Of a stretch of 64,000 nt of DNA, positions 45,200-62,365 are shown piece after piece. Every line of letters starts with the position of its first letter. Position 1 is the first letter of the stretch. The stretch lies in NCBI GenBank assembly GCA_050287845.1, contig JBNKCR010000129.1, forward strand, positions 7,364 through 71,363. Direction: 5' to 3'. Source of the DNA: Polyangia bacterium. Its GTDB lineage: Bacteria; Myxococcota_A; Polyangia; JAAYKL01. The position numbers were made by a program, and so were the translations under genes. Under the pieces are notes generated by a model that saw only the letters and a list, made by a program, of their open reading frames with translations, was not told the origin of the DNA and ran no database searches.

Positions 45200-45378
45200 A
45201 AAAAGTCTCCCTTCTTCGGTAAACCCTCTAACCGCAACAGAACTTCGCTGCGGTGATGTATTCTCCCGCTGTCTCGGTAGGTTGCCGTGCCAATACAAAG
45301 TGTTGAGGAGAAGGAGAAATGGGTTGGGATATCTGAACTATCGGCGGATGTCAAGATAGTTGTCGCATGAGTGTTGCA

Positions 45379-46224
45379 TCATGCGGCCTCCTTAATTGAG
45401 ACTTTTGCCGGATTGAGGGACACCGTTTCTACCGGGATCCAGTTTCGTGTTTTTCCAGTCCAACGGTTTGGTTCTTTTTGTTTTGCACTCTCATAAACCA
45501 AATGTCGTTGACGCAAAATTTCTTTATCATCACCATTATGGCGCGCCTCGGGGGTAACGAAGCGGATGCCGCTGTGTAAGTGTTTTGTATTGTACCAAAT
45601 CACAAATTTCTCCATCCAGCGCCTTGCTGAATCGATGGATTCAAACGGCTTGTGAGGGTATTCTGGTCTGTACTTTAATGTTCTGAAGATTGACTCGGAA
45701 TAGGGGTTATTATCGCTTACTCCCGGGCGACTGAAAGATGCCATCACGCCAGGCTGGTCAAGTGTCGCAAGCATTGTGGCGCCTTTCATCGGGCCGCCGT
45801 TGTCTGAATGCAAAGAAAGCTGATTTGCATCTACACCATTGGCGTCAATAATCTGGACAATCATGGCAGATGAAATTTCCATACACTCACGGTCGTGAAT
45901 TTCCCATCCAATAATCTTTCTGCTCCAAACGGCCAGCACAAGATACGGATAATAAAACGTTCCTCTGACCGCTGCAGGCAAGTACGAAATATCCCAACTC
46001 CACACCTGATTGGGGCCCGTTGCCAAAAGTTCATCGGGTCGATTGTGCGTTGCGGGTTTTGAGGATTCTCGATGTTGCTGTTGTCCCTCCTCACGAAGAA
46101 TCCGATACATGGGAGACTCGGATGCCACGTACACGCCGCTATCAGCCAACCTGGGTACAATTTGATAGTTCCCTTGAAGGGTTGACCGATACGCCCAAAG
46201 AAGCGCTGACAATGGGCATCGCAT
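45379..46224 (-). mobile_element. IS3-family transposase remnant (OrfB integrase-core part only; OrfA and the 5-prime part missing)
   Basis: Integrase-core (rve) signature PNQVWSWDISYLP...YYPYLVLAVWSRKIIGWEI and the DDE region; no HTH OrfA frame upstream; transposase-like similarity starts only about 30 codons into the ORF. Confidence 0.7.
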
Positions 46225-46439
46225 CTATTCTTGACGCAAAAGAAATCGCGATGCTGGCCATTGGAAAACACAAATCGAAGATTCTTCAGCGGATAGTTGA
46301 GTCACCCCCTTCAATAATGGTACCGGCATCTTTTCTCTTTTCGCACCCTCAGACAGTTATTTTCGCAGACAGTGCAGCCGGCCAACTTCTCGATCGACAA
46401 CGCGCTGACGTGACCTGGTTTCCATCCCCTCTGAAGTAA
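46130..46439 (+). pseudogene. glucosamine-6-phosphate deaminase (NagB/6-phosphogluconolactonase family) 3-prime fragment
   Basis: C-terminal about 80-100 aa (ALTMGIASILDAKEIAMLAIGKHKSKILQRIVE...SHPQTVIFADSAAGQL) parallels E. coli NagB residues about 185-250; no upstream two-thirds of the gene; abuts the IS3 remnant. Confidence 0.6.
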
Positions 46440-46575
46440 CACGTGAACAATTCTGACCAGTGTCGTATTGATGCCGCATCTAAAACGTTTCAGCGGAAGT
46501 GGTCAAGTAAGAGTCGAATATCCTTTTCGCCCTGATTGTCTGTGAAAGGCACTATAACCGGCTCTGAGAGTTCTG

Positions 46576-47448
46576 CTACATGTGCCTGGCGAACAGTTTG
46601 CTCATGGCATCCCGGGAGATGGGGGGCTGTTTTACGAGTGGTGTGGTCTCGATTTGGGGAATCCGGTCCTGGAAAGCGTTGCCGCTGTCATCGTGGTAAA
46701 AGAGCCCCACCGGAATCTCGTCGCCCCAGGCCATGGCTTTTTCAATGGCCCGGATGCGATCGTTGGTTGGATAATCCGGGTCATCGTTGATATTCACGAT
46801 GCGGTCTTTGTACCACTTGAAGGTGTTCACTTTGTTCATGCTCACACAGGGTTGGAGAATTTCGATGTAACTGAGGCCTCTGTGCTTCACGCCCATCTGA
46901 ATCAATTCGGACAGATGTTTGGTGTCGCCTGAAAAACTGCGCGCCACAAAACGACATCCAAGGGTCAGCGCCAGCGCCGGTCCGCGCAGGGGATACGATA
47001 TCACGCCACGGGGCTGAAGCCTGGTCTGCAGTCCCATGTCACTGGTGGGGGACGCCTGCCCCTGGGTCAATCCATAAATCTGATTGTTGTGAACCATCAG
47101 CGTCACATCAATGTCCCTGCGGAGGGTATGCAGAAAATGTCCGCCACCTTCACCATACATATCCCCATCCCCGGAGTTCAGGAGAATGGTCATATCTTCA
47201 TTGGCCAGCTTGGCGCCGGTGGCGGCAGGCAGTGCACGTCCATGAAGACCACAGTATGCGTTGGCCGTGATGTACTGGGGCAGCTTGGCTGCCTGACCGA
47301 TTCCAGCCATCATCATCACTTCGTGGGGTTCTTTGCCCAGCGCTTCCAGTGCGTCCTTTACGGCGGCAAGAATGCCAAAATCGCCGCAACCGGGGCACCA
47401 TGCGGTTTCTTTTACTGTACAGATATTGAACGATTTGCACTCACTCAT
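46576..47448 (-). CDS. 2-oxoacid:ferredoxin oxidoreductase, beta (TPP-binding) subunit
   Basis: 290 aa; N-terminal Cys cluster (CPGCGDFG); TPP-binding GDG motif (NSGDGDMYGEGGGH); overlaps the alpha gene stop/start. Confidence 0.85.
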   Translation of the reverse strand: MSECKSFNICTVKETAWCPGCGDFGILAAVKDALEALGKEPHEVMMMAGIGQAAKLPQYITANAYCGLHGRALPAATGAKLANEDMTILLNSGDGDMYGEGGGHFLHTLRRDIDVTLMVHNNQIYGLTQGQASPTSDMGLQTRLQPRGVISYPLRGPALALTLGCRFVARSFSGDTKHLSELIQMGVKHRGLSYIEILQPCVSMNKVNTFKWYKDRIVNINDDPDYPTNDRIRAIEKAMAWGDEIPVGLFYHDDSGNAFQDRIPQIETTPLVKQPPISRDAMSKLFARHM

Positions 47449-49148
47449 TTTACCACCTCCAGAACCGCTTCGGTCAGGTCTTCGACAATATAGGGCCGAC
47501 CATCGTATTTCGTCATGATTTCGGGCTTGATGCCGGTGCTCTGAGCGATGATGGCTGCCAGTTGACCCGTACTGTTGCCTTCCACCGAGATGATGCGTTT
47601 GCTTTTTTCAACCGCGCTGCTGAACTGTCTGGTTGGAAATGGCCAGATATCCGTGAGATGCACGTGATTGAGATGCACCCCCCGTTCTTTCAGAATGGCC
47701 ACGGACTCTGACAGGGTATCTCCAGTGGAACCCCAGCTGACCACTGCCACTTCAGCGTCCCTTGTGCCACTGGTCTGCACATTGTACGTGGCACTCAGTC
47801 GCGCGGTTTTCCGTGCGCGCTTTTCAACCATAGCCTTTCTGATTTTCGGATCATCCGTAATGTGGCCGGTCTCCACATGTTCGTGGCTGTCGGTGAGCAT
47901 CAGATGTTTGCTCTGCCCCGGGTACGCTCTGGGAGAAATGCCTGAATCCGTAATGGCATATCGTTTGTACTCAGTCATCTGAGACAGTGTTCTGGTTGAG
48001 ATCATCGACGTTTCTGTGGGAATCCGATCCAGATTGTACTGATCAACCGTGAAGAACGAATCCGCAATATGCTGGTCAGAAAGCACAATCACCGGAATCT
48101 GGTATCGGTCGGCGATATTGAATGCCCTTGCGGTGATGTAAAAAATATCTTCCGCGTTGGTGGCGGCCAGAACCGCCCGGGGGAAATCCCCATGGCCGGT
48201 GAACGTGGAGAAGAGCAGATCGGCTTGCTCCTGACGGGTGGGAAGCCCGGTTCCAGGACCGCCGCGCTGGCAGTTGACAATGACAAGAGGCACCTCTGAA
48301 ATACCGCAGAGGGAAATCGTTTCACTCATAAGCGCCATACCGCCACCGGATGTGGATGTCATGGCGCGAACGCCCGCCATGGACGCGCCCACTGCCTGAT
48401 TCACCGCGGCGATTTCGTCTTCTGCCTGTTCTGTGACGATGCCTGCAGTCACCTCGGCATTGGCCAGGTAGGTGATAATACCGGTGGAAGGCGACATGGG
48501 ATAGCAACTGATGAATTTCATGTTCGCCGAAAGCGCTCCCAGCGCAGCGGCTTCGTTTCCGTTGAGAAACAATCTGGATGGCGCGCCGTCAATGGTTGGA
48601 AGCGAACCCAGTCTGCCCGCATGGGCTTTTCCCCGGGTGTTGCCTTCCGCTGCCGCACCGATGTTACCGGCCGAGATGGTCTCGTCCCTGAAACGCTCCC
48701 TGAAAAGGGTATTGAGAAGTTCAATATCCAGACCAAGGACACCCAAAACGAATCCCACCGCTGCGGAGTTGGAGTAAATGGGCTTCTTTCCAGTCTCCAT
48801 CGCAATCTGTCTGAGTGGGACATCGATAATCCGGGGATCGGCGATGTTCGCCTTCAGTGTAGCATTGTCAACGATCGCAATGCCATCTTTGTGGAGCGCT
48901 TCAATGTCGCTCTCCATTTTTTCCCTGTCGAGGGTGACCAGTAAATCCACCTGCTTTTTCATCGCCCACACGGGGACATCGCTGATGCGCAGTTGAAAAA
49001 AGTTATGTCCGGCGCGAATTCGCGACTCTGAATCCTGCACGCCAAACACGTGGTAACCGGCCCGCACGCAGGCCTTTCCCAGCAGTTTTCCGGTACTCAG
49101 AAGTCCCTGTCCGGCTGCTCCAGCCAATCTGATATTAATGTCGGTCAT
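47445..49148 (-). CDS. 2-oxoacid:ferredoxin oxidoreductase, fused gamma-alpha subunit
   Basis: 567 aa; N-terminal gamma-type domain (LAGAAGQGLLSTGKLL) fused to an alpha-type domain (CYPMSPSTGI, GGPGTGLPT). Confidence 0.85.
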   Translation of the reverse strand: MTDINIRLAGAAGQGLLSTGKLLGKACVRAGYHVFGVQDSESRIRAGHNFFQLRISDVPVWAMKKQVDLLVTLDREKMESDIEALHKDGIAIVDNATLKANIADPRIIDVPLRQIAMETGKKPIYSNSAAVGFVLGVLGLDIELLNTLFRERFRDETISAGNIGAAAEGNTRGKAHAGRLGSLPTIDGAPSRLFLNGNEAAALGALSANMKFISCYPMSPSTGIITYLANAEVTAGIVTEQAEDEIAAVNQAVGASMAGVRAMTSTSGGGMALMSETISLCGISEVPLVIVNCQRGGPGTGLPTRQEQADLLFSTFTGHGDFPRAVLAATNAEDIFYITARAFNIADRYQIPVIVLSDQHIADSFFTVDQYNLDRIPTETSMISTRTLSQMTEYKRYAITDSGISPRAYPGQSKHLMLTDSHEHVETGHITDDPKIRKAMVEKRARKTARLSATYNVQTSGTRDAEVAVVSWGSTGDTLSESVAILKERGVHLNHVHLTDIWPFPTRQFSSAVEKSKRIISVEGNSTGQLAAIIAQSTGIKPEIMTKYDGRPYIVEDLTEAVLEVVK

Positions 49149-49337
49149 GAGGTCTCGGGCTCCATTTTCTGTTGATATACATTGAGAATAGTATCTCGCT
49201 TTCTATATTCGCAATCACCAGAGTTAAACACATCTCAGGCTGAGTGCAACCTCACCGTCGTAACATCCGGCCTTCATCGGACAGATGCTTCGGGAATTAC
49301 ATCAGACATGAAAGTAAACATGATGCTGCGCGGCCAA

Positions 49338-49853
49338 TCAGGCGCCATCGAGACCATGACGCTCTGATGCGTCAAACCAGGCTTCGGGGTCCTGCAGATA
49401 CGCAAGGGAATCTTCGATGGAAAGCTGGTGATCATGTTCGATTTTTTTCAGAAAACCGAAGAATTCCTGTTCTCTGGGGTTCTTGCATTTTTTCACCAGA
49501 TCCGCATAGAAGTCTGCGGCGTCTTTTTCAAACTGAGCTGCCGCTTTCAATGCTTCAATATCACTGTCGTCGTGGGCTTTTGTTTCTTCAGCCTTGTAGT
49601 CGAGTTTTTCGAGCTCTTCTTTTACATTGCTGTCCTGCATTTCCAGGTTCACATCTTCTGGCCATGCGCCATCCGCCAGGAGCGTACTGTGGAGTTTGTT
49701 AATCCACCGTTTGTGGTCTTCCTCTTCCTCCGCCAGCGTTTCAAGCAGACGTTTCACCACGGGATTGGTCGAACGGGCCGCCTCTTTCAGATAGTAATCT
49801 TTTTCGCGTTGCTCATTGTCCATTGCAAATTTTATTGAAGAAATTTTATCCAT
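49338..49853 (-). CDS. ferritin-like / rubrerythrin-like diiron domain protein
   Basis: 171 aa; paired E...E-x-x-H helices (TLAEEEEDHKRW, KKIEHDHQL); no rubredoxin module. Confidence 0.6.
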   Translation of the reverse strand: MDKISSIKFAMDNEQREKDYYLKEAARSTNPVVKRLLETLAEEEEDHKRWINKLHSTLLADGAWPEDVNLEMQDSNVKEELEKLDYKAEETKAHDDSDIEALKAAAQFEKDAADFYADLVKKCKNPREQEFFGFLKKIEHDHQLSIEDSLAYLQDPEAWFDASERHGLDGA

Positions 49854-49896
49854 AACTTTGCTCCTTTACAAAAATCGATGTCCACAAAAGTGAAAA

Positions 49897-50385
49897 CTAG
49901 TTTTCCACCAGCACAACCTCATCGTATTCGACTTCAAATCGCAGTTTGTGCTTTGCTTCTTCCTGGGCCAGCGCAAGAAACAGCGCTTTAATCTCGGGGG
50001 TATCCACTCGACTCGCCAAATCCATGTACAGGCGGAATGCCTGTTTCTCCTGTTGCATGGCAAACAGCAGAATATCCTGGTACGACGGGGATTCACCCAG
50101 CTTCACAGGAACTGTATAATCCGAGAGCTTCATATCGGATGTCGCCGAAGCGCTCTCCAGTACATCTTCGCCTTCCAGAACGTCCTCAAGCTTTTTCCGG
50201 TGTTCCATTTCTTCTTCAGCGTACTCCAGAAAGATTTTTCTGATTTCATTGTTCTTCGCCCTGGCGGCCAGATCGGTATAGAGTACCGCTGAGCGCTGTT
50301 CAAGAGATATGGCATACTCCAGGATGTCCTTTGTGCTCAGGTGTCCGGTCATCGTTATATTCTCACCATTACGTAAGACAGGCAC
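49897..50385 (-). CDS. ferritin-like / rubrerythrin-like diiron domain protein
   Basis: 162 aa; YAEEEMEHRKKL and LAQEEAKHKLRF motifs; start may be the internal MTGHLSTKDI (50352). Confidence 0.6.
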   Translation of the reverse strand: MPVLRNGENITMTGHLSTKDILEYAISLEQRSAVLYTDLAARAKNNEIRKIFLEYAEEEMEHRKKLEDVLEGEDVLESASATSDMKLSDYTVPVKLGESPSYQDILLFAMQQEKQAFRLYMDLASRVDTPEIKALFLALAQEEAKHKLRFEVEYDEVVLVEN

Positions 50386-50441
50386 GGGTGTTGCGCAAAA
50401 CGCTTACGGATTCGGGCAACACTTTCGCGCCTGCGGATTCA

Positions 50442-50984
50442 TCAGAAATATCGTTTCAACAGTCCGGCAAATGCCTGACCGTGCCTTGCTTCGTCTTTGC
50501 ACATTTCATGTACGGTATCGTGAATGGCATCGTAATTCAGCTGTTTGGCTTTGGTTGCGATGTCCTTTTTCCCCTGGCAGGCGCCGTGCTCCGCAGCGAC
50601 GCGCATTTCCAGGTTTTTCTTTGTGTCTGCCACAAGCACTTCACCCAGAAGCTCAGCAAACTTGGCCGCATGTTCCGCTTCTTCGAATGCAATGCGTTTG
50701 TATGCTTCGGCAACTTCCGGATACCCTTCGCGTTCCGCCTGTCGGCTCATGGCGAGGTACATGCCCACCTCCGTGCATTCGCCCATGAAATTCTGACGCA
50801 ATCCTTCCAGTATTTCGGCGTCAACATCTTTGGCCACGCCAATGCGATGCTCATCCGCCCAGGTCATTCCGGTACCGGACTGCTCCTGAAATTTTTCTTT
50901 GGGGGCGCCGCATTGGGGGCATTTGTCCGGCGCACTGTCGCCTTCGTATACGTAACCACAAATGGTGCAAATGTATTTTTTCAT
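50442..50984 (-). CDS. reverse rubrerythrin (N-terminal rubredoxin-like, C-terminal ferritin-like)
   Basis: Start at [15 protein letters not shown] (ORF opens at 51005); CxxC...CxxC at the N-terminus (CTICGY...CPQCGAP), then a diiron four-helix region ([20 protein letters not shown]). Confidence 0.8.
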
Positions 50985-51065
50985 TTGATACTCCTCTTTT
51001 TTCAATCGGTTAATTGTTGTTGATGTGATTGCATCATTAATGTCTCCGCGCGTATTGTCAATCGC

Positions 51066-51311
51066 TCATGTGTGCCACTTGCCTGCAATCCGATGCTTCT
51101 CACACTCTTTTTCTGTGAGTTTGATCAGTCTGTAGGCGGTATCGCGCAAAATACTGTAAATCACGCCACAGGAATCATCATCCCTGTCCCGGTCGCCCTC
51201 ATCCGCCAATGCCAGCATTTCCTGGCTGAGTCGCATGGTTCTGAGCAGATTGTCGTTGTACGGTTTGTACGGTTTTGTCATCTCGCCATCCATTCTGCGA
51301 TGTATCACCAT
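51066..51311 (-). CDS. hypothetical small protein
   Basis: 81-aa ORF directly upstream, same strand, of the reverse rubrerythrin gene; no motif recognised. Confidence 0.35.
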   Translation of the reverse strand: MVIHRRMDGEMTKPYKPYNDNLLRTMRLSQEMLALADEGDRDRDDDSCGVIYSILRDTAYRLIKLTEKECEKHRIAGKWHT

Positions 51312-51635
51312 TTTTCCGCCGGCATCGCGATGGCAGGCTATTTAGCGAATGCCATGCCAGTTTAAAAAAACGTTTAATATCAACCTGTTGATTGAATTGT
51401 TGTTCAAAAATGTCTCATTGGCAGTGTCTCGGCGCGTTGCTTCCGGGGCTGTGAGACAAACGGCCGACGAGACAGATACTGCGGCGACAAATCGGTGTTG
51501 GTGCGGTCAAATCCTGCCTGAAAGAGATTGTGTCGAGGTTCGCAGTAGCGGCGGGAACTTCCATGATTACAGTGGTGAAACAGCAGATCACAATCATATA
51601 TAACCGTGCAGTTTGCACAGTGATACAGGAGAACA

Positions 51636-51902
51636 ATGATGAGCAGCCCCAAAACCTATGAATACAGGGCCAATCTTTCCCGGGAACAGATTCTGGAATA
51701 TCTCGAGAATGTTGCAGCCGGTATCCGGTCCGGTAAAGTGATATTACAAAACGGACAGGGGGAGCTGGCGCTGGAAACAACCCCCACCACCAGGCTCGAA
51801 GTGTCTGTGAAGCAGAGCGCTAAATCCACCGGTCTGAAACTCAAGTTCAAGTGGCGAAATGATACCGATTCCCGGGATGAGTCCAGTACCGCGGAGAACT
51901 GA
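51636..51902 (+). CDS. hypothetical small protein (amphi-Trp-domain-like)
   Basis: 88-aa ORF with GGAGAA RBS; pattern ELALETTPTTRLEVSVKQSAKSTGLKLKFKW resembles the amphi-Trp small-protein family. Confidence 0.45.
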   Translation: MMSSPKTYEYRANLSREQILEYLENVAAGIRSGKVILQNGQGELALETTPTTRLEVSVKQSAKSTGLKLKFKWRNDTDSRDESSTAEN

Positions 51903-52200
51903 GCGCCGCCGGGATGAGTTCTCTCCCCGGAATGCCGGGATGCGATTCCCATGGTTTTACTGATGGTGAATATTTACCGGATTTTTGAAAACGGATGTTT
52001 TATCACCGAAATATGCCGAAAAAGTGGAAACCCGGTCTTCAGCACTGTCCGGAAATGCCGATTTTCAGGGTGTCTCTCAATTGCGCATGTATCGCTTATG
52101 CGAGCAAACCAGTTGGCAGAAACATTGAACAGAACTGAAGCATTGAACAGAATTGAAACATTGAAATCATCACCATACGAACCCGGGATAATGAGAGATC

Positions 52201-53019
52201 ATGACCTTTTTGGAACCGTATTCGAGCCCGCGTGTACTTGCCACGGCCGGTCTCCCCAATGAGCAGGATCGCTTTTCAGACGCAGGGATAATTTCGAAAG
52301 CGCCCGTGGAGGTGACCCACGAACTGGCTTCGCTGCTGGCGCACCTGCATGAGCGCGTATCTCCCAACTATCGTCCGCGCGAAATCATTCTGGAGCTGTT
52401 GGCCGAGCTCGAAAGAAAATCGGCATTCACCGCCCAGCATTCGATGAAGGTGGCCACCGTTGCCCGCATTCTCGCCAAATCACTGCATCTCGATATTGTG
52501 GCCCTGGAGCGAATCAGCCTTGCTGCGTTACTCCACGACGTGGGCAAACTGGTGATTCCCATCCGCATCCTGAACAAAAAGAAAGCGTTGTCGGATGCAG
52601 AACGCCGTTGCATCCAGACCCATGCCGTATTCACCGATGTCATCCTCTCCGCATTTCCCATCTTCGATGCCATTCGGGGGATTGCCACACTGCATCACGA
52701 ACACCTCAATGGCACCGGGTATCCGTTCGGGTATGGCGGCAGCGACCTTTCCATGGAAACGCGGATTATCACCGTGTCCGACATCTTTGTTGCATTGACC
52801 GAAGATAGACCCTATCGCCCCGGCGTGACCCAATCCGCCGCACTCCACAAGCTGCAGATGCTGGCCAGTGAGGATATTGTGGACCGCAGGCTGGTGGAAA
52901 GTGCCAGGCAACATCTGCTTCCCCACAACCACTCTTCCGCCATCTGGTTTCCATCCCGGACCGCCATCTCCATCGCCCTCGATTTCGAGTCCCTGCAGAC
53001 TGCCGGAATGATTTCGTAA
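52201..53019 (+). CDS. HD-GYP domain phosphohydrolase (putative c-di-GMP phosphodiesterase)
   Basis: 272 aa; HD motif LLHDVGKL and GYP motif HLNGTGYPFG. Confidence 0.8.
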   Translation: MTFLEPYSSPRVLATAGLPNEQDRFSDAGIISKAPVEVTHELASLLAHLHERVSPNYRPREIILELLAELERKSAFTAQHSMKVATVARILAKSLHLDIVALERISLAALLHDVGKLVIPIRILNKKKALSDAERRCIQTHAVFTDVILSAFPIFDAIRGIATLHHEHLNGTGYPFGYGGSDLSMETRIITVSDIFVALTEDRPYRPGVTQSAALHKLQMLASEDIVDRRLVESARQHLLPHNHSSAIWFPSRTAISIALDFESLQTAGMIS

Positions 53020-53114
53020 TCACCTTTCTTTCAGGGACATAAGAAATATGCGACGTGCGGGTCCTGTGCTATAACAATCTCTGGTTTACAAAGCGTGACA
53101 ACAAGGGAGGTCCT

Positions 53115-53999
53115 ATGAATCGATTGGGTATCAGTCTCTGTATCTGCATCTTTGCCATCGGTTGCGGTGGCGGTAATCCAGCCATATCGGATTCGGCAGT
53201 TTCACCTGCCCGGGAAAATTCTGATGGAAACGTTTCCACGGCACCGGGAGGCGTTGATGAGTTCGGCACCAGAACCGGTGATGCATCCGGGGGCGGGGTC
53301 AGTGGTTCGAAGTTGACCCCCACGGAAACCGAAGCCGTGCTGAAACTGATTGTGCAGTCCGAAGGCGTTGGGCCAATGGCGAAGGTGGTGGTGAGAGCGG
53401 TGACTTTGGACGGAAAGAAATTTTACACGCCGGAAACGGATTCCATGGGATACACGGAAATTCTGGTGCCCAGGGGAGCGCAGTTGACGCTCACGTATCT
53501 GTCTCTGTTCACCGATGATATTCAGAAGCAGACCGTCATTCCCGACAAACCCCATGTGACCATGAAACTGACACTCACCTGGATTCCCCCCAAACCCCGG
53601 CCCATTGAAACGCCGGATCCCGGGGTGCTGATTGCGCAATCCCCATCTGCTGAACCATCTCTCATCCTGGATGGCGTGGTGTTCGATACCGGCAAATCCA
53701 CGCTTCGTCCGGAATCCTACGAGCACATTGAATCGGTGCTGGAATACCTCACATATAAACCCAGTGCGATTATTGAGCTGTCCGGTCACACGGACAACGT
53801 GGGCAATCCGAAGAAGAATCTGAATCTTTCCGAAGATCGGGCAAACGCGGTGCGGGACTATCTGATTTCAAAGGGGATAGATGGCAGTCGCATCATTGCA
53901 GTGGGATATGGCGAGCAACGGCCGATTGCGTCCAACAATACCGAAGAAGGACGCCAATTGAATCGACGTACCGAAGCCAAAGATATCGCAAAACTATAG
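53115..53999 (+). CDS. OmpA-family lipoprotein (peptidoglycan-binding OmpA/MotB C-terminal domain)
   Basis: Start at MNRLGISLCICIFAIGC with AGGGAGG RBS (ORF opens at 53055); lipobox AIGC; C-terminal domain with NLSEDRANAVRDYL...GYGEQRPI. Confidence 0.8.
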   Translation: MNRLGISLCICIFAIGCGGGNPAISDSAVSPARENSDGNVSTAPGGVDEFGTRTGDASGGGVSGSKLTPTETEAVLKLIVQSEGVGPMAKVVVRAVTLDGKKFYTPETDSMGYTEILVPRGAQLTLTYLSLFTDDIQKQTVIPDKPHVTMKLTLTWIPPKPRPIETPDPGVLIAQSPSAEPSLILDGVVFDTGKSTLRPESYEHIESVLEYLTYKPSAIIELSGHTDNVGNPKKNLNLSEDRANAVRDYLISKGIDGSRIIAVGYGEQRPIASNNTEEGRQLNRRTEAKDIAKL

Positions 54000-54222
54000 C
54001 GCCACGGGCAGGACGGTGCGACGCTTCCCCGGTGCGCCGGGATGTGAAGCCCACCGCATCGCCGGTCTGTCGCCTAAACAACGAGACGGCCTTTCGTAAT
54101 ATTATTAATTTAGCAATTATTTGTTTTCGGTAAGTACAGAAAATACGTGTAGTTTTTGGTTCGCGCAGTGGTATAAACCTTTGGAACGGATAAAAAATGA
54201 TTTTCGCAACCCCGGACCAGAT

Positions 54223-55851
54223 ATGACATTGATCCGTTTTTTATTGAGTGCGTCCCTGAAAATGACGCTGCTCACCATATTCGTGGCACTGCTCAGCGGC
54301 GCATTCAGCGGCGCCGTTGTGGCTGTGGTGCATCGGACGATTGAATCAGACCGTGAACTGACGCTGCTGCTGGGTATCGCATTTGTTCTGGCGGCGACCG
54401 GTAAACTGATTACCGGATATTTCAGTGAAGTCATGCTCACCAGAAGAGCGCAGACCGCCGTCGCCGCGTTGCGTCTGGACCTGGTTCGCAAACTGCAGCG
54501 GGTGCCGTTCAAGCGCTTTGAGGAGTTGGGACAGGCGAGGATTCTCACCACCTTCACCGACGATGTGGCGTCAGTAAGCCAGGGGCTGTACCAGCTGCCG
54601 GCATTCACCATCAACGTTGCGGTGTCTCTGGGCGGGGCGCTGTACCTGGTATATCTGTCGTGGCAGACACTGTTTCTCCTCGGCGGGCTGTCGCTCATTG
54701 GCGCCCTGGTGTATCGCTTCATGCTGAGACGTGCATGGCGGGTGTATGGCCTGGCGCGCGATGAGCGGGATCGACTGAACAATCACCTCGTTACATTGAC
54801 CCGGGGTATGAAGGAACTCAAACTGCACCGACCGCGACGTCATGCCTATACCGAAGTTGAGCTCCAACACAGCACCGACAGGCTCATGGAACTGGATGTC
54901 AAATCCCACTCGCGGTATATTCTGGCCCACAGCACCACCCATTTTTTTCTGATGGTCCTCATCGGACTGATTGTATTTGTCTCGCCCCAGCTCCTGCATA
55001 TTTCCGAAACCACGGTGACCGGATATGTGTTGATTGCACTTTTTCTGATGGGACCCCTGAGCGGGATTGCCGGCACCATGCCGGTATTCAGCCGGGCCGG
55101 GGTGGCTGTGGATCGCATCCGCAAACTGGGGATTTCATTCGATTCCGGCAAGCAGGAAAAAGCGGTGGTCACTGCAGAGGACGCCGCGTCGTTTATGGAA
55201 ATATCGCTGAATGAGGCCACATGTGTCTATGAAAGGGAAGGGGACGCCCCCTTTACCCTTGGACCGGTGAACCTGAAATTCGGTCCGGGCGAATTGATTT
55301 TTATTACCGGCGGAAATGGAAGTGGCAAGTCTACCCTCGCGAAGTTACTCACCGGTCTGTATGCACCCGGGGACGGTCAGATTCTGTGGAATGGCACACC
55401 GGTGACTGACGAAAATCGGGATGATTACCGGCAGCTGTATACCACGGTGTTTTCAGATTTCTTTTTATTTGAATCGCTGCTGGGACTGGATTCCCCCAAT
55501 CTGGACACCCGGGCGCAGAGCCATTTGAAAAATCTGGGACTCGATAAAAAAGTGCGCATTGAACATGGCGCATTGTCAACGGTGAATCTTTCAACCGGAC
55601 AACGAAAGCGGCTGGCATTGCTGACCGCATATCTTGAAAATCGACCAATCTATGTGTTTGACGAGTGGGCAGCGGACCAGGACCCGTCGTTCAGAAAAGT
55701 GTTTTATGAAGAACTGATTCACGATTTGAAAGCAGAGGGCAAAACAATCCTCGTGATTACGCATGATGACAGATATTTTCACCTGGCGGACCGACATTTT
55801 GAAATGAGGGACGGGCAGATGGCAGAACGGGACAGACAAAAAAAGGAATAG
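54223..55851 (+). CDS. cyclic-peptide/siderophore-type ABC exporter (fused permease-ATPase)
   Basis: Start at MTLIRFLL (ORF opens at 54121); N-terminal six-helix permease; C-terminal ATPase with Walker A GGNGSGKST, signature LSTGQRKRLALL, Walker B IYVFDEW. Confidence 0.8.
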   Translation: MTLIRFLLSASLKMTLLTIFVALLSGAFSGAVVAVVHRTIESDRELTLLLGIAFVLAATGKLITGYFSEVMLTRRAQTAVAALRLDLVRKLQRVPFKRFEELGQARILTTFTDDVASVSQGLYQLPAFTINVAVSLGGALYLVYLSWQTLFLLGGLSLIGALVYRFMLRRAWRVYGLARDERDRLNNHLVTLTRGMKELKLHRPRRHAYTEVELQHSTDRLMELDVKSHSRYILAHSTTHFFLMVLIGLIVFVSPQLLHISETTVTGYVLIALFLMGPLSGIAGTMPVFSRAGVAVDRIRKLGISFDSGKQEKAVVTAEDAASFMEISLNEATCVYEREGDAPFTLGPVNLKFGPGELIFITGGNGSGKSTLAKLLTGLYAPGDGQILWNGTPVTDENRDDYRQLYTTVFSDFFLFESLLGLDSPNLDTRAQSHLKNLGLDKKVRIEHGALSTVNLSTGQRKRLALLTAYLENRPIYVFDEWAADQDPSFRKVFYEELIHDLKAEGKTILVITHDDRYFHLADRHFEMRDGQMAERDRQKKE

Positions 55852-55859
55852 TATTTTTT

Positions 55860-58800
55860 ATGTTGGCATATGGAATAGATACCATCAACGAAGCTTTAAA
55901 ACGAAATGCAGAGCAGTATGGCGACGACATTGCGTTCCGATTCATCCAGGGCGGTACAGATGAAAAGAGTATCACCTACGCCGAACTGTATTCGAGAGCG
56001 CTGCAGATAGCTTCGCAGTTTCGATTGGCAGAAATCCCGTTACAGTCGAAGGTATTGATTCTGTATCCGTCCTCCCTTGAATACATCTGCACGCTGTTCG
56101 GTTGTTTTCTGGCGGGGACAACCGCGATACCGGCGTATCCACCGGTGTTCAACCGGTCACTCTCCGCCCTGCGGAATATCGTTCTCGATTCCGGAGCAAC
56201 CATCGCCTGTGTGGAATCGGCGATTCGGGAGCAGTTGCAACCGTTGCTTCACACGGAGTCCTGGCTCGAAAATCTGAACTGGATGACCCCGGAAGAAGAT
56301 GTTGACGACGCCGTCGATACGAGCGCCCTGCCAGATGTGGCGCCGGAAGACCTGGCCGTTCTGCAATACACGTCCGGTTCCACCAGTGCCCCCAAAGGCG
56401 TGATGTTGTCCCATCGAAATCTGGTGGCCAATGCCCATATGCTCATGGCGCGTGTGCAGGCGACCGCCCGGGTAGACAGAATGGTCGCCTGGCTGCCCCC
56501 GTTTCACGATATGGGTCTCATCGGGAGTATTCTGGCGCCGGTATGCGCCCGGGTGGAATCCACCCTGATGCCCCCCAGTTCGTTTATCAAAAAGCCCCTT
56601 CGCTGGCTGGAAGCGATTTCCAGATATCGGGGAACCATCACTGCGGCGCCGGATTTCGCGTACGAGATGTGTGTGCATCGCACCCCTCCGAAGCAGCGGG
56701 AACTGGTGGATCTCTCCAGCCTGCGCGTGGCCCTGAACGGGGCGGAGAAGGTTCGCGAAGACACGCTGAACCTGTTCTGTGATGCGTTTAAATCGCAGGG
56801 ATTCTCAATGTCGGCATTTGCGCCGTCCTACGGGTTGGCGGAAGCGACACTGGGGGTTGCCATCAAACGGAATGGCAATACGCCGCTTGCCCGCCGATTT
56901 GATACGGAGAAACTGAAGGAAGGGTTGGCGGTCCCGGTCGGCGGCGATGACGGCACATCCCTGGTCACCTGCGGCAAGCCCCTCGATGGCGTGGATGTGA
57001 AAATTGTTTCCATTGAAACGCGGCAAGTCGTTACACCCGGGATGATTGGCGAAATTTGGGTGCGCAGCGCCAGCGTGTCCAGGGGATACTGGCAGAAAAT
57101 CGAGTTGAGTCGTGAGATTTTTGAAGGAACGCTGCCTTCGGATGGCAGACCGGATGAGAAGTATCTGGCCACCGGTGATTTGGGATTCCTGTATGACAAT
57201 GAATTGTATGTGACCGGCCGCCACAAGGATCTGATCATTGTGCTGGGGGTCAATCATTATCCGGAAGACATCGAGAAAACAGTTGAATCCGCCCATCCCG
57301 CCATCCGGCAACATACTGTCATTGCGTTTGCGCTGCCGATAAACGGGACCGAGCGCGTGGTGGTGACCACTGAGATTGCCCGGGGCAATGAATTCGCCCT
57401 CGACGACATCATTGGTGCCATCCGCAATGCCATCAGCACCCGACATCAGTTGCCGGTGTACGATATTGTGCTGCTTCCCCAGGGAGGACAGGTGGCCAGG
57501 ACCACCAGCGGGAAGCCACGGCGCAGCGCGTCCCGGCAGAAGTACGAAGCCAACGGGTTTACGCCGCTGGGAAGCAGTCAGATGCAGCAGGGGACAGAAT
57601 CGGGTTCTCCGGCGGAAGAAATTGCAGTGGTCCAGCGGGTCATGGCGGAAGTGCTTTCGGTGGACCGGGTTTCAGCAGACGACGACTTCTTTGCCCTGGG
57701 CGGACATTCGCTCATCGCCACCCAGCTGGCCTCCCGGTTGGCATCTCTCTGGGAAAGAGAGGTGCCCGTGCGGGTGATATTCGAGCGGCCGACGGCTGCC
57801 CGGCTGGCGGGGGTGCGGCACTCGCTGCCGGTGACCGGAAAACGGAATCAGATACAGAAGGTGGACCGAAGCGGTCCGCTGGTGCTTTCCCACTCTCAGG
57901 AGCGAATGTGGCTGTTGCACCAGCTGGAACCGGATGGCACGGCATACAATGTTTCCGGTGCGGTAGTGGTGGATGGTCCGTTCAACGTGGTCCATTGCCA
58001 GACGGCGATGCAGCGCCTGGTTGACCGCCATGAAACCCTGCGAACCACTTTCCCTTCCGAAGGCGGTACGGTTTCTCCCATGATTCACTCCAATGTGAAA
58101 ATCAACGTTGTTTGTGAAGACCTGTCGAGCGCCGATGACCCGCTGGAACAGGCCGCACGCAAGGGGTCGCTGCTGGCCCACAGGCCGTTTGATCTGGCGA
58201 GGGATTTGCTGATACGGGTTGCCATATTCAAAGTTGCCGACGTTCGGCATGCCATTGTCATTTCGATGCATCATGTCATCTCCGATGCATGGTCTCTGGG
58301 CGTGGTGCTCAAAGAAATCATGGAAGACTACCTGGCATTGAACCGGGGCGAAGTTCCGACTTCGGTGGTGCCGGACATTCAGTATGTGGATTACGCGGCC
58401 TGGTTCCGGCCCGTCGTGGAAAGTGAACGGTTCAATGATGAACTGTCGTATTGGCGGAACCGACTGCAGGGCACACCGAATCTTGAACTGCCCACCGATC
58501 GGTCCCCGGGTTCGAATGTGAGTTCAGCAGGGGAAATGGAACGACTGCAAATTTCGGAAACCCTGCGCAATGAAATTGAGGATTTGGCCCATCAACATGG
58601 CGCCACGCCATTCATGGTGATGCTGCTGGCCTTTGAAACCCTGTTGTACCGGTACAGCCGGCAAACGGATTTTGCCATCGGGGTGCCCATTGCCAACCGC
58701 AATCATCATCAGTCCGAACATCTGGTTGGCACCCTGGTCAATACCCTGGCTTTCCGCGCGAATCTGAATCCAAAGGAGGCATTCAGTGCGCAACTGGAAC

Positions 58801-61775
58801 GCATCCGGGAAGACTGCCTCGATGCGTATGCCCATCAGCAGTTGCCGTTTGAGCGGCTGGTGCAGGAACTGCATCTCGAACGGCGAGCGGGACAGACGCC
58901 CCTGGTGCAGGTGATGTTTGACTACGCCAATCCGCCCATGCCAAAGGCCCGGACCGACGAATTTTCGCTATCGCCCCTGTTCATTTCGAGACGGGCTGCC
59001 CAGTTTGATTTGAGTCTGCTCACCCTGGATTCCGAAATCGGATTCGTGACAGCGATGGAATATAGGAGCGATTTATTCGATGCGTCCACCGTGCGGCGCA
59101 TGCTGGACCATTACCTGCGTATTCTGAAATTGGCGGTCACCAATCCCACTCAGCGTCTTTGTGACATGGCGTTTCTTTCTCAGGATGAAATCCGGGAAAT
59201 CGTTGCTCTCGGCGCCAGCACAAATATGAAACCGGTTTCATCGGATACCACGGTCGCGCGCATTGTGGCTGGTGCCGATGGGGTGACAGGTAAAATGGCG
59301 GTGACAGATGAAGTCGATGGGATCACGTACGGCAGGTTGATGGAACTGACTCGTACGGCTGCCGCAAAGATGGCTGCGGCCAACGTGGCAGCGGGAAGCC
59401 GGGTGGCAGTATGTCTGGAACGGTCACGGCTGATGCCGGCGGCACTGCTGGCGGTGCACTGGCTGGATGCGGCGTACGTACCCATCGACCCGCATTTCCC
59501 GGCTGAACGGGTGAGATACATGCTGTCGGAGACCACGCCCGCGGTGGTGGTCTGCGATGAGGCCACCACCGCCGCGTATCCGGAGTTGGCGCAATACCCG
59601 TGTCTGCGGATTGAAGACGTGGTACAGAGCGAGCCCCTCACGCCACCACCTCTGACCACCCGACCCGATTCCACGGCGTATATTATTTTTACTTCCGGCT
59701 CCACGGGAAAACCAAAAGGAGTGGAGATTCCCCAGCGCGCCATGCTGAACTTTCTGGAGTCCATGGCCCATACACCGGGAATGACTGCCACCGATCGCCT
59801 GCTGTCCGTCACCACCATATCGTTTGACATTTCAGTGCTCGAAATCTTTTTACCGCTGCTCTGTCAGGCCGAAGTGAAGATTGTCGGCAGCGATACGGCA
59901 TTGAACGCCCAGAAACTGCGGGGAATACTGGAAGAGACTGATGTCACCGTGATGCAGGCCACGCCGGTCACCTGGCGGATGCTCATTGAATCCGGATGGG
60001 CAGGCAGCGATTTGTTGACGGTACTCTGCGGCGGTGAAGCAATGCCCGCTGATCTGGCGGAACAGTTGGTTACTCGCAGTAAAGCCCTGTGGAATATGTA
60101 TGGGCCTACGGAAACCACCGTGTGGTCCACGGTTCAGCAAATCAGAACAAAGGAAGCCATTGATATTGGCCGGTCCATTGATCGGACCGCAGTGTATATT
60201 CTGGATGCCACAAAACAGCTTTGTCCCATTGGTGTCACTGGCGAAATCTATATCGGCGGCGCCGGCGTGGCCAAAGGATATTTCAAGCGTCCGGAACTCA
60301 CGCAGGAGCGATTTGTCAAAGACCCCTTTACCCCCGGATTCGGCGATCGCATGTATGGTACCGGCGATCTTGGACGCATGCGATCGGATGGCACATTCGA
60401 ATGTTTCGGTCGTCTGGATCATCAGGTGAAAATTCGTGGATACCGCATTGAGCTGGGTGAAATTGAAGTTGCGCTGAAACAATTGCCCGAAGTGGCGGAT
60501 GCGGTGGTCATTCCCTGGGAGGTAACCCCCGGGGATGCGCGTCTTTCCGCCTATATTATCGCAGAAGGGACGGCGCCAGAGAGCGAGCAACTGCGAAATG
60601 TACTTCGAAAATCGCTGCCGGGATACATGGTGCCCAGCTGGTTCACGGTGATGGCCCAGTTCCCCACCACGCCCAACGGTAAAATTGACCGCAAGGCACT
60701 GCCTGGCCCCGATGCGAAACTGGAAGTGCAGAGCCCGCTGAGAGTCGCCCCGCGGAGTGAGACAGAGAAAGCGCTGGCCGTCCTGTGGGCCCGGACCCTG
60801 GATGTGACCCATCCGAGTATTACCGACAACTTCTTCGATGTGGGACACTCGCTGCTGGCTGCCCGGTTGTTCGGGCAAATCGAAAAAGAGATGGGGGTTT
60901 CGCTCCCCCTGTCGGTGCTGTTTTCGCATCCCACCATTGAGATGCTGTCCGCATACATCGACGGACAGGTCGATGAACTGGGGTATTACGAACTGAAATA
61001 TGTGGTGCCCATCAAACCCCGGGGGCGCGCCACGCCGGTGTTCTGTATCCACGGCGCCGGGGGGAACGTGCTCAATTTTGAGTCCCTCGCAAGGCATATC
61101 GACGCGGATTGTCCACTGTATGCCATCCAGGCCCGTGGGGTGCATGGCACGGAAACGCCCTTTGACACCATTGAAAAGACGGCGTCGGCCTATCTGGAAG
61201 AAGTCATGGAGATTCAACCGACCGGTCCATACATTATCATGGGATACTGCGCCGGTGGGGTTGTGGCATTTGAAATGGCCAGGCAGATTCAGTTGAAAGG
61301 TGACATGGTGCGGGATTTGATTCTGATAGATACGTTCCGTCCCGGGGTTGGCTATACCATTCCCTCATTCGGCAAACGGGTGCTTCGCGCGGCGACCAAA
61401 GGTCCGGGGCATTTCTTCCGACACAGTTTCTCCAGGCTGCATCGAATTAAAGAGGACAACGCCAATCTGAAGGCGCTGAACAGGCACCTGAGCGCCGGCG
61501 AGCCGGTGCCCCACGAACTGAGGACCCTTTGGCTGACCCGGGCGTTTCTGGACTCCGTTGAAAAGTACCAGCTGCCGGTGTACGATGGGGCACTCACCAT
61601 CTTTGAAGCGGCGGATGTTCCTTCGGATCTGGTGTGCAGTGAGCCCAATCTGGGATGGGATGGATACGCTGCGTCCATCAGTTGCACCAAAGTGCCGGGA
61701 GGCCACCTCACCCTCACCGACGAACCCAACGCAAAAGTCCTGGCCACCGAACTCTGCAACCGCCTCCACCGCTGA
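55860..61775 (+). CDS. non-ribosomal peptide synthetase, FAAL - carrier - C - A - carrier - TE (single amino-acid module with lipid-loading domain)
   Basis: 1971 aa. FAAL-like domain aa 1-565 (TSGSTSAPKGV). Carrier GGHSL (Ser617). C domain HHVISDAWS (aa 804-812). A domain core motifs FTSGSTGKPKGV, FDIS, NMYGPTE, GEIYIGGAGVAKGY, YGTGDL, GRLDHQVKIRGYRIELGEIE, LPGYMVP, PNGKIDRKAL. Second carrier FFDVGHSL (Ser1664). TE with IHGAGGN and GYCAG. Confidence 0.9.
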   Translation: MLAYGIDTINEALKRNAEQYGDDIAFRFIQGGTDEKSITYAELYSRALQIASQFRLAEIPLQSKVLILYPSSLEYICTLFGCFLAGTTAIPAYPPVFNRSLSALRNIVLDSGATIACVESAIREQLQPLLHTESWLENLNWMTPEEDVDDAVDTSALPDVAPEDLAVLQYTSGSTSAPKGVMLSHRNLVANAHMLMARVQATARVDRMVAWLPPFHDMGLIGSILAPVCARVESTLMPPSSFIKKPLRWLEAISRYRGTITAAPDFAYEMCVHRTPPKQRELVDLSSLRVALNGAEKVREDTLNLFCDAFKSQGFSMSAFAPSYGLAEATLGVAIKRNGNTPLARRFDTEKLKEGLAVPVGGDDGTSLVTCGKPLDGVDVKIVSIETRQVVTPGMIGEIWVRSASVSRGYWQKIELSREIFEGTLPSDGRPDEKYLATGDLGFLYDNELYVTGRHKDLIIVLGVNHYPEDIEKTVESAHPAIRQHTVIAFALPINGTERVVVTTEIARGNEFALDDIIGAIRNAISTRHQLPVYDIVLLPQGGQVARTTSGKPRRSASRQKYEANGFTPLGSSQMQQGTESGSPAEEIAVVQRVMAEVLSVDRVSADDDFFALGGHSLIATQLASRLASLWEREVPVRVIFERPTAARLAGVRHSLPVTGKRNQIQKVDRSGPLVLSHSQERMWLLHQLEPDGTAYNVSGAVVVDGPFNVVHCQTAMQRLVDRHETLRTTFPSEGGTVSPMIHSNVKINVVCEDLSSADDPLEQAARKGSLLAHRPFDLARDLLIRVAIFKVADVRHAIVISMHHVISDAWSLGVVLKEIMEDYLALNRGEVPTSVVPDIQYVDYAAWFRPVVESERFNDELSYWRNRLQGTPNLELPTDRSPGSNVSSAGEMERLQISETLRNEIEDLAHQHGATPFMVMLLAFETLLYRYSRQTDFAIGVPIANRNHHQSEHLVGTLVNTLAFRANLNPKEAFSAQLERIREDCLDAYAHQQLPFERLVQELHLERRAGQTPLVQVMFDYANPPMPKARTDEFSLSPLFISRRAAQFDLSLLTLDSEIGFVTAMEYRSDLFDASTVRRMLDHYLRILKLAVTNPTQRLCDMAFLSQDEIREIVALGASTNMKPVSSDTTVARIVAGADGVTGKMAVTDEVDGITYGRLMELTRTAAAKMAAANVAAGSRVAVCLERSRLMPAALLAVHWLDAAYVPIDPHFPAERVRYMLSETTPAVVVCDEATTAAYPELAQYPCLRIEDVVQSEPLTPPPLTTRPDSTAYIIFTSGSTGKPKGVEIPQRAMLNFLESMAHTPGMTATDRLLSVTTISFDISVLEIFLPLLCQAEVKIVGSDTALNAQKLRGILEETDVTVMQATPVTWRMLIESGWAGSDLLTVLCGGEAMPADLAEQLVTRSKALWNMYGPTETTVWSTVQQIRTKEAIDIGRSIDRTAVYILDATKQLCPIGVTGEIYIGGAGVAKGYFKRPELTQERFVKDPFTPGFGDRMYGTGDLGRMRSDGTFECFGRLDHQVKIRGYRIELGEIEVALKQLPEVADAVVIPWEVTPGDARLSAYIIAEGTAPESEQLRNVLRKSLPGYMVPSWFTVMAQFPTTPNGKIDRKALPGPDAKLEVQSPLRVAPRSETEKALAVLWARTLDVTHPSITDNFFDVGHSLLAARLFGQIEKEMGVSLPLSVLFSHPTIEMLSAYIDGQVDELGYYELKYVVPIKPRGRATPVFCIHGAGGNVLNFESLARHIDADCPLYAIQARGVHGTETPFDTIEKTASAYLEEVMEIQPTGPYIIMGYCAGGVVAFEMARQIQLKGDMVRDLILIDTFRPGVGYTIPSFGKRVLRAATKGPGHFFRHSFSRLHRIKEDNANLKALNRHLSAGEPVPHELRTLWLTRAFLDSVEKYQLPVYDGALTIFEAADVPSDLVCSEPNLGWDGYAASISCTKVPGGHLTLTDEPNAKVLATELCNRLHR

Positions 61776-61860: not shown

Positions 61861-62094
61861 TGCACATTGATGTGTAGAGGAGGGGAAGACGATAATGACG
61901 GTCATTGCTTTCTGATATCGGCGCCGTTTTGCACTGCTGCTTCGGATAGATCATGATAAATTTTTAAACATGTTTCTGAAATTGGTGGCGATGAAGATGC
62001 CTCCAGAACACTCCGCCATTGTTTCAGCAATTTCTCCATCTCAGGACAGTGATCATTATAAAATTGCCACCTTGCTTCCGCTGCATCCCGCCCG

Positions 62095-62365
62095 ACTTCG
62101 TTGCTCGTCGGTCGCATACCCCGGTATGTTCCGCTCCTCGCGCCTTGCCGGTCCGGCGCAGCAAATGCCATGTTGGAAATTTTATTTCGACCACTGTCCT
62201 TAGGTCTTGCTCATAAATAACTCTGCCATTCATGCAACAAACTTGACATCCCTGCTGCGTTGCTCCTCCTCGCCATACCGCCAGTATGACTCGTTGTCGC
62301 GCCTTGCCGGATATGTCATCCTGTTACCTGAATCAACAGATTTATTTATGAGCAAACCCTTAGAC
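62095..62365. repeat. intergenic composite repeat: about 55-bp imperfect direct repeat plus about 20-bp inverted repeat (ttgctcataaataa core)
   Basis: Copy A about 62099-62155 and copy B about 62258-62312 share cgttgctc...cgcgccttgccgg; inverted copies of (c)ttgctcataaataa at about 62204-62220 and 62341-62361. Confidence 0.4.

Follow-up and report, generated by a model that had tools for sequence, protein, structure and literature searches.

The stretch of DNA analysed here, 64,000 nucleotides of contig JBNKCR010000129.1 from a Polyangia bacterium (assembly GCA_050287845.1; hereafter the window), carries on its forward (+) strand a gene at 55860-61775 (5,916 nt, 1971 aa) for a single-module lipid-linked nonribosomal peptide synthetase (lipo-NRPS). 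The gene was delimited from the list of open reading frames (ORFs), its translation and Pfam matches, and a protein identical to its product is on record in public assemblies. Pfam resolves six domains in this protein, in the order fatty acyl-AMP ligase (FAAL), first carrier (T1), condensation (C), adenylation (A), second carrier (T2) and thioesterase (TE). No interruption breaks the 5.9-kb reading frame, and the catalytic motifs examined by motif search are all intact. An earlier note, made by eye from the letters of the sequence, had drawn attention to 59292-60780, an interval that lies in frame within this ORF, and had likened the specificity residues of its A domain to a code for glycine or another small amino acid. 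Our analysis indicates that the A domain, located at 59289-60695 and the sole amino-acid-activating domain of the enzyme, belongs to a one-module lipopeptide synthetase and very probably selects glycine.

All gene features described below lie on the forward strand. The polypeptide opens with the FAAL domain (55860-57569, about aa 1-570), delimited by PDB matches, by the Pfam families AMP-binding and AMP-dom_DIP2-like and by NCBIfam models. The T1 acyl carrier follows, with a GGHSL motif at 57699-57713 found by Pfam PP-binding and motif search, and with Ser617 as its predicted phosphopantetheine residue; Pfam PP-binding reports this carrier as two stretches. The C domain (57882-59201, aa 675-1114; Pfam Condensation, 336 bits) contains the active-site motif HHVISDA at 58269-58289 (aa 804-810; motif search). 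Downstream of the A domain (aa 1144-1612; Pfam AMP-binding and AMP-binding_C, TIGR01733) come the T2 peptidyl carrier (60771-60959, aa 1638-1700; Pfam PP-binding, motif FFDVGHSL, Ser1664) and the TE (61035-61742, aa 1726-1961; Pfam Thioesterase), whose triad would consist of Cys1797 (GYCAGG), Asp1824 (LILIDTF) and His1949 (PGGHLT).

The A domain scores well above the Pfam cut-offs for AMP-binding (PF00501, aa 1144-1475: 485 bits against 29.9) and AMP-binding_C (PF13193, aa 1534-1608: 36.6 against 24.5), and reaches 541 bits with TIGR01733, whose curated cut-off is 317. Core motifs A1 to A8 and A10 were all located in recognisable form, including A3 (FTSGSTGKPKG) and A7 (YGTGD). Motif A2, at 59463-59489 (aa 1202-1210), reads WLDAAYVPID and is atypical against the common KAGGAYVPID. 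Pfam detects no methyltransferase or oxygenase insertion inside the domain. The three motifs on which the earlier note had anchored its reading are where it had put them, all in frame in the ORF at 55860-61775: A4 (FDISVLE) at 59823-59843 (aa 1322-1328), A5 (NMYGPTETTVW) at 60093-60125 (aa 1412-1422) and A10 (PNGKIDRK) at 60672-60695 (aa 1605-1612).

Pairwise alignment to GrsA-PheA with MAFFT L-INS-i yields the ten-residue code DILQLGMVWK. The GrsA reference equals PDB 1AMU at 556 of 557 aligned residues, its index corresponds to the published numbering and its own code reads DAWTIAAICK. The same DILQLGMVWK is obtained from an independent alignment of 220 sequences, namely 219 A domains from 120 homologous NRPSs plus GrsA; since other modules in this alignment display textbook codes (DLFNNALTYK, DFWNIGMVHK, DALWLGGTFK, DVWHISL..K), the code columns were correctly read. 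Motif A4 provides positions 235 (Asp1323), 236 (Ile1324) and 239 (Leu1327), placed by the alignments and by motif search. Position 278 is Gln1366 (59955-59957), inside VMQATP, and is reached gap-free from A4 in the alignments to both GrsA and AB3403, a termination module of Acinetobacter baumannii. Positions 299 and 301, which had been left uncertain, fall inside VLCGGEA (60024-60032) in two alignments: LCGGEA aligns on I-T-A-G-S-A of GrsA, which makes 299 Leu1389 and 301 Gly1391, and it matches AB3403 residue for residue. Motif A5 supplies positions 322 (Met1413), 330 (Val1421) and 331 (Trp1422), while 517 is Lys1608 (60681-60683), inside A10, as placed by pairwise alignment and motif search. 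The eight residues that had been read by eye, D-I-L-Q and M-V-W-K, are all correct according to the two computed alignments. Asp235 and Lys517 are both present, consistent with the alpha-amino acid substrate that had been deduced from the aspartate, and the GrsA-PheA alignment that had been proposed as a check gives no large hydrophobic or charged code. The similarity to the classical glycine code DILQLGLIWK, also pointed out earlier, is confirmed, with changes at 322 (L to M) and 330 (I to V) alone.

The published record of specificity codes points to glycine. Of the 2,051 A domains compiled in 2025 from assembly lines whose products are known, 93 are glycine domains, and their main code cluster is variable at positions 299, 322 and 330 (PMC12283262). 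The exact code DILQLGMVWK is tabulated in this compilation for PabJ, as Gly(11), and for Arg2, as N-Me-Gly(11), next to the glycine codes DILQLGLIWK (28 cases), DILQLGLVWK, DILQLGMIWK, DILQLGVIWK and DILQLGVVWK; all DILQ-x-G-x-x-WK entries of the table correspond to Gly or N-Me-Gly (PMC12283262, Table S7). The A domain studied here thus matches a tabulated glycine code at 10 of 10 residues.

Solved structures lead in the same direction. When the PDB was searched with the 128-residue A4-A5 pocket stretch only, the two best matches were AB3403 (4zxh/4zxi) followed by DhbF (5u89), the bacillibactin synthetase. The alignment to AB3403 covers 125 residues with no gaps at 45% identity, and the codes read from these alignments are DILQLGVVWK for AB3403 and DILQLGLIWK for DhbF. 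Entry 4ZXI holds AMP and glycine, and 5U89 is the DhbF glycine module trapped with a glycyl-vinylsulfonamide (PMC10510592). The gap-free fit to AB3403, a structure with bound glycine, comes nearest to the structure-based alignment named in the earlier note, and it picks out the same residues. A search with the whole A domain placed LgrA at the top of the PDB matches with 585 bits. Two A domains contribute to this score (288 + 295), and LgrA uses the unrelated code DIANLCIIYK in its glycine domain (PMC12283262, Table S7), so the LgrA match is uninformative on specificity and was set aside.

The code is also conserved across the family. All 14 homologues of the same six-domain architecture (1,892-2,034 aa, 43-50% identical) have DILQLG[MLV][IV]WK, and one-residue variants occur in more distant FAAL-C-A-TE proteins from a Steroidobacteraceae metagenome-assembled genome (MAG), Hydrogenophaga luteola KCTC 42501 and a gammaproteobacterial MAG. 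In the homologue set as a whole, DILQxGxxWK is found in 49 of the 219 A domains. Relatives with two modules have a DILQ-type code in one module only and a quite different code in the other, which indicates that the glycine code tracks the module and not the lineage. Published codes, solved structures, family conservation and module specificity together support the earlier suggestion of a glycine or small-amino-acid specificity.

Judging from its matches, the N-terminal domain is a fatty acyl-AMP ligase. In the PDB, all of the 15 best distinct matches belong to the FAAL family, among them the polyketide synthase (PKS)-associated ligase 7r7g (E 7.5e-118), the Legionella enzyme 3kxw, FadD23, the FadD32 group, FadD28 and E. 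coli 3pbk, whereas acyl-CoA ligases score much lower (at most 103 bits). An AMP-dom_DIP2-like match at aa 457-563 would suit a FAAL-type C-terminal subdomain. The NCBIfam FAAL models are the best for this region yet remain below their cut-offs (NF004509 460/775, NF006624 432/600 and NF009124 423/922 bits); these cut-offs are set for stand-alone proteins, so we read the low scores as divergence within the family and not as exclusion from it. The C domain resembles elongation-type domains (TycC 2jgp, 231 bits; Txo2, 229 bits; second C domain of DhbF, 216 bits) far more closely than the starter C domains of RzmA (7c1h, 74 bits) and CDA-C1 (4jn3, 68 bits). With the elongation-type references scoring higher, it does not group with the acyl-CoA-using starter domains of lipoinitiation, and such an elongation-type domain fits an acyl donor presented on the fused carrier. 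In T2, the attachment motif FFDVGHSL (60831-60854, aa 1658-1665) has one residue fewer than the usual FFxLGGHSL, and the family alignment has a gap there. The homologue P0122, 90.5% identical to the synthetase and found in another, independent assembly, has the identical FFDVGHSL, which argues against a sequencing error; the remaining family members have the motif at its usual length.

The TE is recognised by Pfam (PF00975) with 98.7 bits against a cut-off of 26.4, and among solved structures it matches best an NRPS TE (7crn) and the Pks13 TE, the latter aligned from end to end (E about 2e-18). The triad was assigned from the Pks13 alignment, in which the cysteine falls on the serine of GWSLGG and the aspartate and histidine on LIDAV and GGEH. 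The nucleophile elbow, GYCAGG at 61242-61259 (aa 1795-1800), thus has a cysteine instead of the usual serine. Cysteine occupies this position in 13 of 14 close family members, and serine in P0005. We considered whether a cysteine thioesterase was in itself exceptional and dropped the idea: a search with the TE only, in 1.84 billion representatives, retrieved 730 relatives at E <=1e-30, in which GYSGGG and GYCGGG are both common, so that the cysteine is a feature of the subfamily and not a singularity.

Immediately upstream of the synthetase gene lies a gene for an ABC exporter with fused permease and ATPase (54223-55851, 542 aa; Pfam ABC_membrane and ABC_tran). Its product scores 474 bits with the NRPS-associated family TIGR01194, 'cyclic peptide export ABC transporter', against a curated cut-off of 286. 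The exporter ORF reaches upstream to a TTG at 54121, and the public gene call begins at 54223. As read from the junction sequence, the exporter stop codon precedes the synthetase ATG by 8 nt and an AAGGA lies inside the 3' end of the exporter gene, an arrangement from which the two genes are probably co-translated.

A similar linkage is seen in related loci: an exporter or flippase gene adjoins the synthetase gene in nine of ten family loci examined, the window included. At seven of them (P0083, P0094, P0085, P0076, P0113, P0078 and the Steroidobacteraceae locus L002) the direct neighbour is a Polysacc_synt flippase of the MOP/Wzx type; these flippase-linked loci lie on L082, L083, L084, L086, L002 and two JGI contigs. 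The locus of P0005, the closest-but-one homologue (48% identical synthetase), has an ABC exporter 60% identical to that of the window, and no transporter was seen at the P0006 locus. A phosphopantetheinyl transferase gene lies just upstream in the P0083, P0085, P0076 and P0113 loci, as well as in Hydrogenophaga L004, which is without flippase. The synthetase-transporter units sit among unrelated housekeeping genes, for instance beside lpxC-ftsZ, and the recurring unit is the synthetase plus a membrane exporter. A scan of one genome per GTDB species gave a best synthetase match of 42% identity.

Two other groups of relatives were noted in passing. A sister FAAL-C-A-TE group (P0269, P0315, P0268 and L047 from Terracidiphilus gabretensis S55) has the code DILA.GM[IV]WK, with Ala for Gln at position 278, and its substrate may differ from glycine; the TE nucleophile in this group is Cys in P0269, P0315 and P0268, and Ser in L047. 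Many Nitrospira MAGs (P0021-P0035 and others; loci L008, L011 and L012) encode a two-module protein of about 3,085 aa with the layout FAAL-T-C-A-T-C-A-T-TE, whose first code is DGTV[IV]AEVWK and whose second is the glycine code DILQLGMIWK.

From the domain order we propose a simple reaction scheme, in which we infer glycine as the actual substrate, the chain length of the fatty acid, the mode of release and the export step. The FAAL would adenylate a fatty acid and load it onto T1, and the A domain would adenylate glycine and load it onto T2. The elongation-type C domain would then form the amide bond, giving N-acyl-glycyl-S-T2, and the TE would take the product onto Cys1797. Release would occur most simply by hydrolysis to a free N-acylglycine, and the ABC exporter encoded 8 nt upstream would carry the product across the inner membrane. 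An N-acylglycine is the most likely product of the enzyme.

Several observations weigh against this scheme or against parts of it. As regards the substrate, specificity codes are predictive and do not define what a domain loads, the identity with AB3403 across the pocket stretch is only 45%, and a few codes, such as DIVQLGLVYK, are common to Gly and Ala (PMC12283262). The A domain might therefore load another small amino acid, L-alanine for instance, or accept both Gly and Ala, and the product would then be another N-acyl amino acid. The shared codes, listed as Gly(17)/Ala(9) for DIVQLGLVYK and Gly(3)/Ala(4) for DIFNNALIYK (PMC12283262, Table S7), and the sister clade with Ala at 278, which shows that the pocket varies in the wider family, lend this alternative some substance. 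However, the shared codes depart from DILQLGMVWK at 239 or 278, and at 331, whereas every entry of the DILQ-x-G-x-x-WK form in the same table, the exact code included, is assigned to Gly or N-Me-Gly, and the two nearest solved pocket stretches, those of AB3403 and DhbF, bind glycine or a glycyl analogue. We consider a substrate other than glycine alone highly improbable. Doubts of another kind come from the atypical T2 attachment motif, one residue short of the usual GG(H/D)S loop, and from the 64-kb window, in which neither a phosphopantetheinyl transferase gene nor an MbtH-like gene was found, while five related loci have a phosphopantetheinyl transferase gene directly upstream. A decaying or inactive synthetase gene that yields no product would explain such signs, but the transferase may be encoded elsewhere in the genome, the 5.9-kb frame is unbroken with all checked catalytic motifs intact, and P0122 retains the full length, the glycine code and the T2 motif. 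The survival of an intact copy at 90.5% identity argues for purifying selection, and we give gene decay hardly any weight.

A release other than hydrolysis may also follow glycine loading, as the cysteine at the active site and the resemblance of the TE to that of Pks13 would allow. Through its cysteine the TE could transfer the N-acylglycyl group to the hydroxyl or amine of an acceptor, for instance a sugar, glycerol, another lipid or a polymer of the envelope, or could link two units, and the product would then be an envelope lipid more complex than free N-acylglycine. Cysteine is the nucleophile in 13 of 14 close relatives, and the TE aligns over its full length with that of Pks13, which in mycobacteria is an acyltransferase that moves an acyl chain to trehalose. 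In ObiF1, a catalytic cysteine takes part in non-hydrolytic release (PMC10510592). Most related loci, moreover, pair the synthetase with a MOP/Wzx-type flippase and not with a peptide exporter. Yet the resemblance to Pks13 in the TE is modest, either nucleophile, Cys or Ser, is common in the TE subfamily, with Ser in the closest-but-one relative P0005, and the loci examined share no glycosyltransferase gene, or tailoring gene of any other kind, next to the synthetase. On balance we think non-hydrolytic release unlikely, and retain hydrolysis to a free N-acylglycine as the simplest outcome.

Among characterised systems, AB3403 (ABBFA_003403; 4ZXH/4ZXI) has a C-A-T-TE layout like that of the synthetase, its code DILQLGVVWK is one residue away from DILQLGMVWK, and a match of 596 bits extends over C-A-T into the TE, of which it covers the first half. 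The C domains of the two proteins are only distantly alike (109 bits). The acyl donor of AB3403 is delivered from upstream on a carrier protein, and the product of the pathway is described as undefined (PMC10510592). In AB3403 the adenylating enzyme and carrier that act upstream are proteins of their own, whereas in the synthetase described here FAAL and carrier are fused. Among single-domain PDB matches to the whole A domain, module 1 of DhbF (5U89), which activates glycine, ranks first with 393 bits. DhbF is, however, a two-module siderophore synthetase primed with an aryl acid, where a fatty acid is predicted for the synthetase of the window, and was crystallised with an MbtH-like protein bound, for which the window has no gene. 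The N-terminal unit of PvdL (9LCP and related entries) shows the same fused order of acyl-adenylating domain, carrier, C, A and carrier, with a match of 445 bits to the C-A-T region and a moderately similar C domain (136 bits); unlike the synthetase, PvdL continues with further modules.

The loading of a fatty acid on a carrier by a FAAL, followed by coupling to the first amino acid by a C domain, is known from daptomycin (DptE/DptF), puwainaphycin and related cyanobacterial lipopeptides (PMC9113097, PMC11837247, PMC4219810). Assembly lines of the daptomycin and puwainaphycin type have many modules, whereas the synthetase uses one amino acid and holds its six domains in one polypeptide. A functional analogy, and nothing closer, relates it to SwrW, the serrawettin W1 (serratamolide) synthetase, and to the N-acyl amino acid synthases (NAS; glycine-lipid N-acyltransferases), which obtain fatty acyl amino acids from a minimal enzyme. 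SwrW is not known to contain a FAAL or an acyl carrier, takes serine and links two units; NAS-type enzymes, for their part, are small acyltransferases with no relation to NRPSs. Among single-module NRPSs that yield a lipo-amino acid, SwrW is the classic example (PMC3353980). The glycine-glucolipid of Alcanivorax was also considered as an NRPS product, and this comparison was dropped: the paper names glycosyltransferase candidates only and describes the pathway as unresolved. In the open-access literature we found no characterised FAAL-T-C-A(Gly)-T-TE enzyme that has all six domains fused and ends after one glycine. Every part of the synthetase is of a known kind, and the specificity call is routine and correct; the compact family itself appears to be uncharacterised.

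The rest of the window consists of ordinary chromosomal genes, including those for citrate synthase, ketol-acid reductoisomerase, oxoprolinase, CcmF, UvrD-like helicases, pyruvate:ferredoxin oxidoreductase and rubrerythrins. The citrate synthase is 80-83% identical to proteins from MAGs labelled 'Deltaproteobacteria bacterium'. Neither another NRPS or PKS gene nor a MOP flippase gene was found in the 64 kb, Rfam at gathering thresholds reports no RNA family in the window, and a promoter and terminator scan gave a site count no higher than in shuffled sequence. The flanks at 44003-52000 and 52201-53999 include the pyruvate:ferredoxin oxidoreductase subunits and three rubrerythrin-family genes, which indicate that the organism lives anaerobically. 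They also include, immediately before the exporter gene, genes for an HD-GYP-type protein, possibly a phosphodiesterase of cyclic di-GMP, and for an OmpA-family protein. On the 3' side of the synthetase gene, the intergenic interval 62040-62363 contains two adjacent units of about 159 nt, each flanked by imperfect inverted repeats of 27-35 nt. The exact 14-mer TCGCGCCTTGCCGG occurs in both units (at 62138 and 62297) and nowhere else in the window, and the units have no Rfam match; they may form a small repeated or hairpin element.

A substrate call of this sort is routinely made by standard NRPS software, and the added value here lies in the genomic context. As a two-gene unit of 7.6 kb, the exporter and synthetase offer an easy target for heterologous expression, which would reveal both the product and the mode of release by the Cys TE. 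Because the code fixes the predicted head group, one may read the entire gene as that of a self-contained N-acylglycine synthetase with its exporter, in an uncultured, deltaproteobacterium-like anaerobe. N-acyl glycines made by other biosynthetic routes serve as membrane lipids, surfactants and host-active signals. The compact architecture and the glycine code recur beside membrane flippases in many environmental genomes. A bolder proposal, speculative and in our estimate distinctly improbable as a whole, is that the synthetase and its relatives form an unrecognised but widespread minimal cassette, composed of an optional phosphopantetheinyl transferase, a FAAL-T-C-A(Gly)-T-TE(Cys) enzyme and a MOP flippase or ABC exporter. 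Such a cassette, with its Cys TE acting as an acyltransferase onto an envelope acceptor, would supply N-acylglycine-based envelope lipids or signals in diverse, mostly uncultured Gram-negative bacteria, by way of an NRPS and not of the known N-acyltransferases.

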